NCBI RefSeq assembly: GCF_017348835.2
Contig: NZ_CP071375.1
Length of the DNA: 64,000 bases
Strand: one strand, 5' to 3'
DNA from: Escherichia coli
Lineage (GTDB): Bacteria; Pseudomonadota; Gammaproteobacteria; Enterobacterales; Enterobacteriaceae
Made by a program: the position numbers. This document shows positions 24,201-30,200 of this stretch, one piece after another. Each line of letters starts with the position of its first letter. Position 1 is the first letter of the stretch.

Positions 24201-27200
24201 GAAAAACGAGTATTTTTAGTCATCCTGTTTACCTCTTTCTCAGGGAGTTTAGTCTCCAGGATTTCCGGGGCGGTTCAGTTCGTTTATTCCATCTTTCGAG
24301 TGCTTCTTTTTCACTTCCACCATAACCGGTTCGGGATTCGCATCCGTTACACTTCGCTCGGTAATATCCTGAAATGGCTTTCACCGTTACTGATGGACAA
24401 CCACAAAATGGACATGGTTTAACATTGTCATATCTCATAATTTTTCTCATAAAAAATATTTCAAGTTGGCGGTGCATTACACCGCCAGGCTGAATTATTC
24501 CTCTGAATTATCGATTACACTGTATTCCCCGGTTAATACAGAGGAATCTGCAGGATCGATTGTCAGTGGTTCCTTTTCATCCATTGATACTGCACGCTGG
24601 ATCTCAATTGATACGGGCAGATATTTGAACAGGCGACGAATAGCCGTTTTCTTTGCCATTTCTTCCCAGTGAGTTACCCACGGCCCGTTATTACCAGCTT
24701 TACTCAGGCTGCGCACCAGCTCAATCTGTTTGCGCGTCATAACTTCAAACTGAGTACCTCCGTCTTTCAGTCTTGCGACAGCATAGACGTGGGTAACCGG
24801 GGCATCTTCGTTTTCTCCCGGGCGGTGTATTAACTTTTCATCAAGGCCAAATTCGAAGCTAAACTCGTCACCTTCACGGACAACACGGGCTGACAGGCTG
24901 GCGATTTGACCAGAACGGCGAGCCAGATCAATCATGCCGCGATAGCCAATGATTAGCTGAACGTTCTTTTTACCGCTCTTTTCGTTTTTATTACCAAAAG
25001 GCAGTAAATATGCATGACCGAGGGCGCTACCTGGCTCAAGTCCGAGCTGTGAACACTGTACGATCGCACTGACAAAACTCATAGTGTCACAGTTTCCTAA
25101 CGCCGGAACTTTACGAATTTCTGTGGTGGCGATACGGATCATACGTTCAGCCGTCATATGGCGTGGAAGAGCTGCTGCCAGTTGCTCTTTCATTGATGGC
25201 TGGTTAATAAAACTAATCACGTCGCTATTTTTAACTGCTGCTGGTGCACGGTTTCCCTGAGTTTTTTGCAGATCGGCTTTTGCGATTGGTGGTTGCTTAG
25301 TCATTTGCATATTCCTTAGCCCAGCGGGGCAGTGATAATGTCTTAATAGCTGGCCATTCATCGGTATTCAGGCAGTCAGACAGGGTTCGCAGATTGCGGT
25401 GATATTCCTGTTGACCTGCCAGTTTTGCTTCTTCGCCCATCATGAAAATTTCAACCGGATAACGTCCGCATTCAATAGTTGTGCTGGCAACCAGAAAAAC
25501 GAAAGTTGGCTGCACTCCAAACTGTGCTTCATAACCGTCACTGTAGAATGCATCCTGAACGTGATAGCGGTAGTCGTAATAAGCGGTTTTGAATCGTTGA
25601 ATATCCGCCGTAGTTTTCACGTCCATGATCCAGTGAAATTCAGGGATAATTTTGTCCGGACGGCACCGACACAAAATTCCTGTTTCAGGATCTTCCCAGT
25701 AAATTGATGATTCAGCGTGTCCGGCGCTTTCAACAAGCCATTGCCCCAGCGGCAAAGCCATAACGCTTTGATACATGAGTTCAATTTTCCGGCCTTCTTC
25801 CGCAGTGATAACCGTTTTTCCTGTGCTTGCGCATTCCATCAGAAACGCTTTCTCTTCTTCTTTTCCGGCGTTTGTACGGCGGTTAAATTCAGGTGCTACG
25901 ATAAAGCGGTTACTGAATTCTTCCGGTTCAAGTACCCGGCAGTGGAAAGCAGTTCCTAAATCGAGCGTTTTTGTCTTTGTGGTGTCCACGGGGGCATTTT
26001 TACGCCACAAATATAGTGCCGGAGTATCAGCAATGTCATCGAGCTGAGACTTACTGATACCGGGACCCGCGTGGTAATTCTCATTCGAAATTCCGTAATA
26101 AATACCTGGCTCTATGTCTTCTACGATTACGGGATCTGCGACTTCGCCAGTTTCATCACTGCAATCGCGATGCGGATCGCTGCCAGCATTCTCATTGTGC
26201 GGATGTTCAGCGCCTTCCATTTCCTCCGGATCATTTTCCTTAGCTTCAACCTGACTCTCTTCATCGAATGTTTCCTGGTATGTTGCGTCGCCCATCACCG
26301 CACCACAGTCAGGGCAGTTATCCCCGCCAGTCTGGCCGCAGGCATTGCAGGCTATTTCCGGTTCCTGTTGCACTACTGGCTCAGGTTGATTCATATCTGG
26401 GCTGGTTTTTTCCGTTTCTGGCTGGTTCTGGTACACACAATCGCGAGTCTGGATCCCCTTACCTGGCTGACACCATGCATTTGTCAGCAGAGGAGCATGG
26501 TGCGTATTTGTTGCTGATGTTCAATTACTGGCAAACAGGAAAGCCAATACCTAAAAACAGGCTGGCAAAAATTGCCCGTCTGACTAACGAGCGATGGGCT
26601 GATGTTGAACCATCCTTGCAGGAGTTTTTTTGCGATAACGGCGAGGAATGGGTGCATCTTCGGATTGAGGAAGATCTGGCATCAGTCAGGGAAAAATTAA
26701 CCAAAAAATCAGCCGCAGGAAAAGCATCTGTTCAGGCCAGAAGAAGCAGAAAGGAAGCAGATGTTCAAACAAAACAAGAGAGAAATTTAACAGGTGTTCA
26801 AACAGATGTTGAAGTGGTGTTTGAACATGATGTCAACACAAAGGCAACTAATAAAGATACAGATAAAGATCTAAAAACAGATCCCCCCCTAAATCCCCCC
26901 CGGGGGAATCGAGGTGTCAAAAAGTTTGACCCTCTGGATATTGCTTTGCCGAACTGGATTTCTGTCTCGCTTTGGCGTGAGTGGGTTGAATTTCGCCAGG
27001 CATTGCGAAAACCGATTCGAACGGAGCAGGGCGCTAACGGGGCGATACGGGAGCTGGAAAAATTCCGCCAGCAGGGTTTTTCACCTGAGCAGGTGATTCG
27101 ACACAGCATCGCCAATGAATACCAGGGCTTGTTCGCGCCAAAAGGTGTTCGACCTGAGACGTTACTCCGACAGGTTAACACCGTCTCGTTACCGGATAGT

Positions 27201-30200
27201 GCGATCCCGCCAGGCTTCAGGGGGTAACTGACCATGAAAAATATTGCGGCAGGCGGCATTCTTGAACGTATCCGCAGACTGGCCCCGCCACATGTAACCG
27301 CCCCATTCAAAACGGTAGCGGAGTGGCGCGAGTGGCAACTTTCCGAAGGCCAGAAACGTTGTGAGGAGATCAACCGTCAGAATCGTCAGTTGCGGGTGGA
27401 AAAAATTCTGAATCGCTCCGGCATCCAGCCGTTGCACCGCAAATGCTCGTTTTCGAATTACCAGGTGCAGAACGAAGGGCAGCGATACGCGTTGAGTCAG
27501 GCGAAATCCATCGCTGATGAACTGATGACCGGGTGTACAAATTTTGCGTTCAGCGGAAAACCTGGTACCGGAAAAAACCATCTGGCGGCGGCTATCGGGA
27601 ATCGCCTGCTGAAAGATGGCCAGACAGTGATTGTGGTTACCGTGGCTGATGTCATGAGTGCCCTACACGCCAGCTATGACGACGGGCAATCAGGCGAAAA
27701 ATTTTTGCGGGAACTGTGCCAAGTGGATCTGCTGGTTCTTGATGAAATTGGCATTCAGCGCGAGACAAAAAACGAGCAGGTGGTGCTGCACCAGATTGTT
27801 GATCGCCGGACAGCGTCGATGCGCAGCGTGGGGATGCTGACAAACCTGAATTATGAGGCCATGAAAACATTGCTCGGCGAGAGGATTATGGATCGCATGA
27901 CCATGAACGGCGGGCGATGGGTGAATTTTAACTGGGAGAGCTGGCGTCCGAATGTCGTCCAGCCAGGAATTGCGAAGTAATTTTTACCGGGAGAAAAATT
28001 TAATGGAGACTGTTTTTGACGCACTGAAAGCAATGGGAAAAGCTACATCCATAGAACTTGCTGCGCGACTTGATATCAGCCGTGAAGAAGTGCTGAACGA
28101 ACTATGGGAACTGAAAAAGGCTGGTTTCGTTGATAAAAGCGCGTACACCTGGCGTGTGGCTGATAACAACGTTCAGCAGGAACAGCCAGCGCCGGCAGAA
28201 CTGCCGGAAGAAACTACCACGGCAACAGTCGCGAAAATTTCAGAGAGCGATTTAACTGCGACGATTGAACAACGTGGTCCACTAACTGCGGATGAACTGG
28301 CTACGTTGTTCGGTACCACATCCCGCAAAGTGGCTTCAACGCTGGCAATGGCAATCAGCAAAGCTCGTCTGATTCGCGTTAATCAGAACGGTAAATTTCG
28401 TTACTGCATGCCGGGCGGTAATTTACCAGCAGAGCCGAAAGCTGCATCGGTAGCGGAAACAGATGGTAAAGCCTTTCCTCAGCTAGCCGGTGTTGCGTTA
28501 CCAGTACAGGAAGCTGCAACACAGGAAGATATTAAAACAGAAACTGTGGCGGACATTGTGCAGTCGTTGCCATCGTTTACTGAAACGCAAGCGGATAACC
28601 TGATTTTACCATCGCTGCATATGGCAAACCGTGAACTGCGTCGGGCGAAAAATCATGTCCAGAAGTGGGAGCGAGTCTGCGCCGCGCTGCGGGAGCTGAA
28701 CAAGCACCGGGATATTGTTCGACAGATTACTGATTCTTCCCGCCGTGTTGTATCGGAAAAGTGATTGCCGGAGGCGCTTATGGCAAAAGTATTTACACAA
28801 GAAGAGCGGGAAAAAATTAAAGGGCAGGTTGTTGAACTAGTACGCCGGAGTGGGCGCGAGACGTTACGGCAACTGGAAGCCAAGACAGGTGCGACAAGAT
28901 ATCTGATGAGCGTTCTCGCCAGAGAGCTGGTTGCCAGTGGCGATGTATACAACTCTGGTTACGGGTTATTCCCGTCTGAACAGGCTCGTAAGGACTGGCA
29001 AAATGCCCGCAAAAAACTATCTAGGGCAAAGGTGAAGAAACCATCTGTGGTTGATCCGGACCTTATCTGGTCATTACCAGACGGAGAAATACGCCGCTAC
29101 GACAGGCGTCTGAACATAATCTGTCGCGAGTGCCGGAAGAGCGAAGTTATGCAGCGTGTGCTGGCGTTTTATCAGAATGGTTTTCGAGAGAGGCTTGGAG
29201 ATCAGGGATGAATAGAACGATGAAGGATGGAAGCTACATATTCTCGGTACTAAGATTTATTTTTCTGACACAAAATGACCATTTGGCGTTACATAATCCC
29301 AAAAAAACGTATCAAAAATCTCAAAATGCGTTACGATTAGAGAGTATTTTGATTCTGCGTGCTCATTTTTTGATTGCTGTGGCTTTTTGTTGTGGGAGTG
29401 TTGAATGGATTATTTATCAGAAGTGTTAAAAATCATTGAAGGTGCAACAAAGGCAAATGCTTCGATGGCTAGTAATTATGCTGGGTTGCTGGCAGATAAG
29501 CTCGAACAAAAAGGGGAGGTCAAGCAAGCCAGAATGATAAGAGAAAGGTTGCTTAGAGCTCCCCAGGCGTTGGCAGGAGCTCAAAGGGCTGGAGGTGGGA
29601 TATCTCTGGGCTCATTACCGGTAGATATTGATAGTCGACTCAACACTGTTGATGTCAGTTATCCTAAATTAGACAGTTCAGAGATTTTTCTGCCTGCAGC
29701 AATCAGTACCCGTGTTGAAGAGTTTATCACTAATGTTCAACGTTATGATGAGTTTGTTAAAGCTGATGCAGCATTGCCGAGTCGTATGCTCGTGTATGGA
29801 AAGCCAGGAACAGGTAAGACTATGTTATCTAAGTACATCGCTACCCGCTTAGATTTTCCACTTCTTACAGTGCGTTGCGATACTTTGATTAGTAGTTTAT
29901 TGGGACAAACCAGCAAAAATCTTAGACAGGTTTTCGATTATGTAATGCAGAGGCCATCAGTGCTTTTTTTAGACGAATTTGATGCTTTAGCTGGAGCAAG
30001 AGGTAATGAGAGAGATATAGGTGAGCTTCAGCGAGTTGTCATTTCACTATTGCAGAATATGGATGCGGCATCAGAGGATACGGTAATTATTGCCTCAACT
30101 AACCATGAGCAACTTCTGGATCCTGCAATCTGGAGGCGATTTAGCTTCAGAATTCCAATGCCTCTGCCTGACATACATCAGAGAGAGTTAATTTGGAAAA

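Follow-up and report, generated by a model that had tools for sequence, protein, structure and literature searches.

An internal deletion joins truncated recE and ydaU genes in a K-12-type Rac prophage of Escherichia coli

The window, a 64,000-nucleotide stretch of Escherichia coli contig NZ_CP071375.1, contains a K-12-type Rac cryptic prophage inserted at ttcA, identified from open reading frames, annotation and alignment. The order is ttcA-intR-xisR, with intR and xisR next to ttcA, and the left arm aligns to MG1655 Rac at 99.9% identity. The Rac integrase gene intR (21198..22433, minus strand) is an intact ORF, 99.9% identical to that of MG1655 and annotated by PGAP in the identical region of strain PE164; xisR (22435-22650, same annotation) comes after it. 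A 1,310-bp IS3-family element resembling IS629/IS1203 (22968..24277, minus strand; alignment and annotation) occupies the 3' end of ralR, with ends TGAACCGCCCCGG... and an intact 3-bp target duplication, GTT. Intact recT (24495..25304, minus strand; ORF and annotation) is followed by a remnant, recE' (25297..26460, minus strand), that keeps the last 387 codons of the exonuclease VIII gene (residues 480-866), as judged by alignment, PDB and Pfam matches and PGAP. On the plus strand lie ydaU' (26461..27227), the remnant of a DUF1376 replication protein gene from codon 31 onward (alignment, Pfam DUF1376, PGAP), and intact ydaV (27234..27980; ORF and annotation), encoding a DnaC-like ATP-binding protein. 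The recT-recE recombination module and the ydaU-ydaV replication module are thus both present and divergently oriented, with recE and ydaU truncated, and the racR/ydaS immunity region that belongs between them has been deleted. Neither ORFs nor annotation revealed a repressor, cro, kil or sieB gene between intR and ydaU', as the original prediction, made from sequence alone, had stated. Given the missing racR/ydaS region, the window copy is a deletion derivative of K-12-type Rac and not a typical member. The earlier claim that the prophage is no longer inducible is reasonable, though trivial for an element that lacked morphogenesis genes and was a remnant beforehand.

The alignment to K-12 Rac that the original prediction had proposed places the breakpoint at 26459/26460. 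Mapping was done against three Rac copies, intact or differently deleted, MG1655 included, and sets recE codon 480 (minus strand) head to head with ydaU codon 30/31 (plus strand). The recE match reaches 26460 and the ydaU match begins at 26459, so that the two overlap by 2 bp, TT (26459..26460); where intact recE reads CCCCTTTACCC, the window reads CCCCTTACC. Relative to MG1655, 5,260 bp are missing (bases about 1,415,950-1,421,209). By the MG1655 gene order from recE to ydaU, this segment held the whole of racC, ydaE, kilR, kilS, sieB, ydaF, ydaG, racR, ydaS and ydaT, together with the 5' 1,437 nt of recE (its 5' 55%) and the first 89 nt of ydaU. With it went the divergent early promoter/operator region around racR, and ydaV was stripped of the rightward early promoter that adjoined racR. 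The two remnants adjoin directly, with no foreign spacer DNA or filler, and intact Rac copies align to the flanks at 99.9% identity beside recE' and 97-99% beside ydaU'. A single junction with a 2-bp overlap and no mobile element or att site fits a microhomology-mediated (illegitimate) deletion, and bears out the proposal that one deletion took the immunity region and the 5' ends of both genes. One illegitimate recombination across the TT would have joined recE codon 480 to ydaU codon 30/31. Recombination by IntR at a secondary site was rejected: the 26-bp Rac att core, TTGTTCAGGTTGTATTGTTCTTTCTT, was not found at the recE'/ydaU' junction and is unrelated to any of the junctions. IS-mediated deletion was rejected as well, since no IS end or remnant lies at the junction; the IS629-like copy is 2.2 kb away with its 3-bp duplication intact, and takes no part in it.

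The minus-strand ORF at 25297-26436 encodes 379 aa with a Cys cluster and the nuclease region, as originally described, and starts with GTG. This first in-frame start, at 26436, is an internal Val codon of recE, the native start being gone. PDB entry 3H4R matches residues 118-379 of the ORF (E 1.7e-181), Pfam DUF3799 is also matched, and the nuclease domain, coded at 25300-26085, is complete. The nuclease domain of RecE (564-866) suffices genetically (PMC3945230), and the earlier argument that C-terminal RecE is enough for nuclease activity holds for the part retained here, which contains that whole domain (PMC11611040, PMC3945230). On reading the sequence, an AAGGGG about 19 nt 5' of the GTG is too far away to act as a ribosome-binding site, and the first ATG has none. 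With its native start lost and neither the first GTG nor the first ATG preceded by a ribosome-binding site, recE' is probably a pseudogene; PGAP labels it so in the identical PE164 region ("incomplete, missing N-terminus"). An internal ATG (EEMEG, about residue 560) has GGAGG 2 nt upstream, and a nuclease-domain product could be made from it, given any transcript. The recT start overlaps the end of recE' and keeps its own AAGGA ribosome-binding site, and the RecT protein, WP_000166319.1, has the same accession as in other Rac copies.

The ydaU' remnant retains codons 31-285, its plus-strand DUF1376 frame ending at 27227, and the Pfam DUF1376 match spans model positions 10-86 of 86. PGAP annotates a CDS of 250 aa beginning at an ATG at 26475; with that start, the spacing of 38 bp originally given between the recE' and ydaU' starts is correct. 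The accompanying remark that ydaU' has no upstream initiator stands only in part. An ATG, that at 26475, lies within the conserved motif, and another is in frame at 26268, although translation from the latter would read through antisense recE.

It is known that recET can be activated by sbcA mutations (PMC3945230), and the original prediction saw an "sbcA-like configuration" here, with recE'-recT driven from the antisense strand of the ydaU' 5' region. Loss of racR plus a fortuitous antisense ydaU' promoter would then give constitutive production of a truncated, active RecE along with RecT, and RecA-independent recombination. Several features agree with this proposal: the repressor is absent, the genetically sufficient nuclease domain (564-866; PMC3945230) is whole, recT is intact with its own ribosome-binding site, and one weak extended -10 candidate occurs at 26812-26784. 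The label "sbcA-like" is nevertheless unsupported, because, along with racR, the leftward promoter region native to recET was deleted and no replacement supplied. A sigma-70-like consensus scan of the minus strand over 1 kb upstream of recE' gave no site at 9/12 or better and one weak 8/12 match, compared with 6.3 per kb window-wide, in a type of scan that misses weak, sigma-S-dependent and activator-dependent promoters. Two terminator-like hairpins on the minus strand (26592-26564) stand between the extended -10 candidate and recE'. A further promoter-like site, internal to recE' at 26039-26010, is shared unchanged with K-12, whose recET are silent, and transcription from it would cut the nuclease domain. 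No minus-strand prophage gene is annotated upstream of recE' as a source of read-through, the downstream Rac genes being plus-strand without exception. Nor does the new 5' end of recE' offer an ATG with a properly spaced ribosome-binding site, the translational start that activation of the sbcA type would need. Activation of that type calls for an intact RecE nuclease domain and recT, which are here, and for a promoter into recE, native and derepressed or foreign, which the computational scans did not find. We consider the activation scenario very unlikely. Both remnants, recE' and ydaU', would now be promoterless, and recT and ydaV, while intact, are probably untranscribed. To judge from the sequence, silent remnants are the most likely state of recE'/ydaU', and nothing points to a switching-on of the recombination genes.

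K-12-type recE at full length is present in 1,623 genomes. The exact recE'/ydaU' junction was found in two, PE164 and F2_81, of a total of 5,426 complete E. coli genomes; both come from pigs. Because only these two have the junction, the arrangement is derived, not ancestral. The original prediction had itself named the contrary reading, that a separate Rac-family lineage had this arrangement ancestrally; this reading, or an assembly artefact, has next to no chance of being correct. In both genes the cuts fall within conserved domains or within a codon, the sequence on either side is nearly identical to intact Rac, and the junction recurs, beyond the window, in two complete genomes with different accessions and in no others of the 5,426. 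Nothing was found in favour of either an ancestral form or an artefact, which alignment and population counts rule out. Nested deletions, in place of the preferred single event, may also have produced the junction. At least 14 other junction types delete or rearrange the same Rac region in other strains, and an IS is found at some of these junctions, namely IS1 in JNQH497 and an IS629-like element in PEC240.

RacR is essential as the repressor of the toxic ydaS/ydaT; racR and ydaS always co-occur, and most strains have lost the toxin genes (PMC5700373). Derepression of Rac selects for Rac loss (PMC11014345). The present deletion would be tolerated, and possibly favoured, because RacR was removed together with every toxic gene under its control (ydaS/ydaT, kilR); racR presumably cannot be lost alone. 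We infer selection for the deletion from this literature.

A separate observation concerns where Rac deletions end. At least 12 independent Rac deletions or rearrangements share breakpoints to the nucleotide, the ydaU end of the window deletion among them. Five sites are re-used, at MG1655 about 1,416,964, 1,419,482, 1,420,416, 1,421,208 and 1,421,795; they serve as the ends of deletions and of inversions in unrelated strains, and either side may be kept.

It is possible, though we would not call it probable, that the right end of the window deletion began at a preferred break at ydaU codon 30/31 (GAT^TAC), and that the broken end then joined the nearest microhomology. FDN-24 has a ydaU breakpoint within 1 nt of this one, with a different left end; PSJ-16 also has one within 1 nt, as the end of an inversion and with the opposite side kept; and the four further sites are re-used likewise. 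Among 38 breakpoints there are 12 coincident pairs, compared with 0.4-1.2 expected. Nine of 26 distinct breakpoints lie directly 5' of TAC on one strand, which we infer to be the lagging-strand template, compared with about 1 expected; set against this, the motif was spotted post hoc and two later alleles are without TAC. Candidate agents of breakage are topoisomerase or quinolone-induced cleavage, an IS3-family transposase with excision enhancer, and strand-specific replication stalling. The IS629-like element 2.2 kb away also counts in favour of a preferred break, as does its relative (94% identity) at a Rac deletion junction in PEC240; the lack of an IS remnant at the recE'/ydaU' junction counts against it. 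The right flanks of the window and FDN-24 are identical over 430 nt, moreover, so that this side of the junction may be shared by ancestry. The five hot spots have no motif at a fixed offset in common. A consensus search for a shared recognition motif gave a best 8-column score of 29, within the null range of 27-31. Proximity to hairpins was not significantly enriched, in a weak test whose imperfect script missed some longer stems. Boundaries of homology between immunity modules do not account for the sites, as K-12/W-type homology ends at L004 positions 10619 and 11679 and the hot spots lie at 10483 and 11417. Among known models checked by hand against the junction sequences, IS608-type TTAC cleavage, integron G^TT crossover, RuvC WTT^S, Chi-like protection, EcoP15I/Type III offsets, IS1 pseudo-ends, Xer arms and Dcm/Vsr (CCWGG) each fail at least one junction; a TTACC-to-TTACC exchange, to take one case, predicts CCCCTTTACC and not the CCCCTTACC of the window. 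None of the models tried provided a mechanism for breakpoint re-use. More tentatively still, there may be at least five nucleotide-precise hot spots, with site-preferring DNA breakage, not random slippage, sculpting Rac and the window deletion as one predictable outcome.

The recE'/ydaU' junction is most probably a derived deletion allele of K-12-type Rac, a further step in the domestication of a defective prophage, whose remnants are silent and whose RecET pathway has not been activated. The allele matters little in itself: it is ordinary decay, one more case in a cryptic prophage that has been much studied, and a public annotation already lists it as a pseudogene. It does show cleanly why loss of the Rac repressor has to include the toxic genes under its control, a co-loss that is a published pattern. 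Should recE'-recT be expressed, a wild pig isolate would have constitutive RecA-independent recombination, with a bearing on prophage mosaicism and strain engineering. Nucleotide-precise re-use of breakpoints, if true on phylogeny, could indicate a specific mechanism of prophage domestication.

K-12 Rac (MG1655 1,411,899-1,434,958) has in common with the window its position at ttcA, a left arm of intR-xisR-rcbA-ralR-recT-recE (99.9% identity), the replication genes ydaU-ydaV (97%) and the presence of trkG. The window differs in lacking the 5.26 kb that reach from recE codon 479 to ydaU codon 30, in its own IS629-like insertion in ralR, in iteA/iteS and lysis genes that take the place of the K-12 genes ydaW/rzpR, and in its right end, with sitABCD. 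The known sbcA alleles, which include the sbcA8 deletion (racC' fused to recE) and Tn5/IS50 promoter insertions, supply a promoter and a translational start into recE, or derepress its native promoter. They resemble the window in being altered upstream of the RecE nuclease domain, the N-terminal part of RecE being dispensable, whereas in the window nothing replaces what was lost: the repressor, the native promoter and any start codon. Internal deletions without an IS and with 0-2-bp microhomology are also present in the Rac of E. coli B / BL21, in recE and over a stretch that starts upstream of ydaG and ends in the lysis genes, but at other breakpoints; racC, kilR and sieB remain in BL21, and the genes from racR through ydaW are gone. 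In the co-loss of racR and ydaS/ydaT described by Krishnamurthi et al. 2017 (PMC5700373), the repressor and its toxic targets are likewise absent, and the recE C-terminus, recT, intR and ydaV are kept, as in the window. That study scored presence or absence in 154 genomes, whereas the present analysis defines the exact junction and its microhomology and compares it with at least 14 others.

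The Rac cryptic prophage, integrated at ttcA in the E. coli chromosome, occupies 21.2-42 kb of the window. Its closest match is strain PE164 (pig, NZ_CP114128.1), the two being 100% identical across 3.6 kb and 99.975% across 8 kb. According to the ORFs and to PGAP's annotation of the identical PE164 region, the left arm reads ttcA, intR, xisR, rcbA, an IS3-family element, ralR, recT and recE', the last annotated as "incomplete, missing N-terminus". The opposite strand carries a 250-aa "YdaU family protein", ydaV, DUF1627, DUF977, iteA and iteS. In MG1655 Rac, recE and ydaU are separated by racC-ydaE-kilR-kilS-sieB-ydaF-ydaG-racR-ydaS-ydaT, a block that is gone from the window.

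This Rac copy has other features of its own. An IS629/IS1203-like IS3-family element (22968-24277, 1,310 bp, ends TGAACCGCCCCGG, GTT duplication) lies in the ralR 3' end, where about 11 codons at the end of the RalR toxin gene have given way to it and ralR is cut off from rcbA and the ralA antitoxin RNA gene. Directly after the DUF977 gene stand iteA and iteS (29405-32798), an AAA ATPase and an S8 peptidase with an anti-phage name in PGAP. Other Rac copies have there DUF262 plus an AAA ATPase, or TetR, adenosine deaminase, NTP pyrophosphatase and SIR2, so that the slot looks like a variable site for defence cargo. The right end is unlike that of K-12 Rac; the iron/manganese transporter operon sitABCD (about 42,550-45,730, sitB being a pseudogene) lies between truncated Rac tail-fibre genes and uspF.

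We mapped the junction by BLAST and by comparing it base by base with MG1655 and a further two copies of Rac. Window positions 24278-26460 match recT and the last 1,164 nt of recE with 99.9% identity. Positions 26459-28452 match ydaU, starting at its nt 90, and ydaV; identity here is 97% to K-12 and 99% to one other Rac copy. TT is shared by both matches (intact recE, CCCCTTTACCC; intact ydaU, CTGATTACCTGG; window, CCCCTTACCTGG), and 5,260 bp are absent relative to MG1655, about 1,415,950-1,421,209. RecE' keeps residues 480-866 and YdaU' residues 31-285. No filler DNA, IS end or att-core sequence was found at the junction. A plus-strand frame of 319 aa (26268-27227), starting with the ATG at 26268, runs antisense through recE' into ydaU' and is a putative chimeric ORF made by the deletion.

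The observation itself is confirmed, and the alignment supports the original prediction that one deletion removed the immunity region and both 5' ends. The refuting alternative named with that prediction, an ancestral form of a distinct Rac lineage, does not hold. Of 5,426 complete E. coli genomes, just two carry the exact junction, PE164 and F2_81, which both come from pigs. Full-length K-12-type recE is found in 1,623 genomes. Because the junction is rare, each gene is interrupted within conserved sequence, and the flanking DNA hardly differs from intact Rac, the arrangement is derived.

Loss of the repressor is viable in this form. In K-12, racR is essential through repression of the toxic ydaS/ydaT and can be deleted only if ydaS goes too; in a set of 154 genomes ydaS was always accompanied by racR, and most strains have lost the Rac toxin genes (PMC5700373). 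A deletion from kilR through ydaT therefore removes repressor and toxic genes together. Perturbation of RacR selects for Rac loss (PMC11014345). The window deletion may have been positively selected.

Chimeric queries joining distant Rac anchors found a compressed recE-ydaV interval in 22 genomes, representing eight alleles; further alleles extend to the lysis genes or begin beyond kilR. Some other strains have an IS1 or IS629-like element at the Rac junction. Nineteen IS-free junctions from 15 strains were fetched and mapped, and show microhomology of 0-4 bp, nearly all A/T. Strain PSJ-16 (L016, NZ_AP027632.1) has the order recE' / ydaU 3' end, part of ydaV, an inverted ydaS-ydaT-ydaU' fragment, and DUF977. 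This looks like several simultaneous breaks rejoined, and of its six breakpoints, three fall at hot spots of other strains.

The window deletion adds a new allele to a familiar kind of prophage decay and can already be recognised from public annotation, which makes it of low interest in itself; breakpoint re-use is the sole part that might merit further work. Five breakpoints are common, to the nucleotide, to Rac deletions or inversions of unrelated strains (window 26459-26460; loci L003, L006-L011, L013-L017 and L019-L021). By approximate MG1655 position, these are 1,421,208 at ydaU codon 30/31, the right end in the window (this window, FDN-24, and PSJ-16, where it is an inversion end with the opposite side kept); 1,421,795 in ydaU (CP61, PSJ-16); 1,416,964 in recE (CP61, PCP06171); 1,419,482 upstream of ydaG (BL21, AF56, LD39-1 type, GPEC206 type); and 1,420,416 in the 5' region of ydaS (LR-46, PSJ-16). 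The 38 breakpoints yield 12 coincident pairs where 0.4-1.2 would be expected (P below 1e-8).

Rearrangements that share a breakpoint may have arisen independently in these unrelated strains. The flank shared by the window and FDN-24 is identical for 430 nt, and that side of the junction could therefore reflect common descent. Homology boundaries of the immunity module do not explain the hot spots, as their positions differ, and the hot spots contain neither a common fixed-offset motif nor an att core. Of 26 distinct breakpoints, nine allow placement directly 5' of a plus-strand TAC, where one would be expected; no other trinucleotide or offset scored higher. This motif was noticed post hoc, and the two alleles fetched later lacked it, though both were broken at a known hot spot. 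A further lead, and no more than that, is a report that illegitimate recombination rises when RecET is overexpressed (PMC3375238).

The 379-aa recE' ORF holds the entire crystallised RecE nuclease domain (PDB 3H4R, E 1.7e-181; Pfam DUF3799). RecE residues 564-866, or 588-866, can replace the full protein, which is required only for efficient linear-linear recombination (PMC11611040; PMC3945230). In our reading of the sequence, the new 5' end has no native start and the first ATG no ribosome-binding site. The earliest in-frame start is a GTG at 26436, an internal Val codon, with the nearest purine-rich stretch, AAGGGG, about 19 nt off. In YdaU' the start of DUF1376 is missing (the match covers model positions 10-86 of 86).

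The original prediction also placed recET in an sbcA-like configuration, and this part is wrong or at least unsupported. Along with racR, the deletion took all of the divergent control region, and thus both early promoters. All Rac genes to the right of the junction are on the plus strand, so none can read through into recE'. The promoter scan found no minus-strand promoter upstream of recE'; the sole nearby minus-strand hit, 26039-26010, lies inside the sequence encoding the nuclease and does not differ from K-12, in which recET are silent (PMC3945230). A more lenient scan gave one 8/12 match in the upstream 1 kb; the window as a whole averages 6.3 per kb per strand. That site is separated from recE' by two terminator-like hairpins. 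Consensus promoter scans are weak evidence and expression is judged here from sequence, but the remnants are probably silent. Whereas sbcA alleles turn recET on, the window allele loses switch and promoter together.
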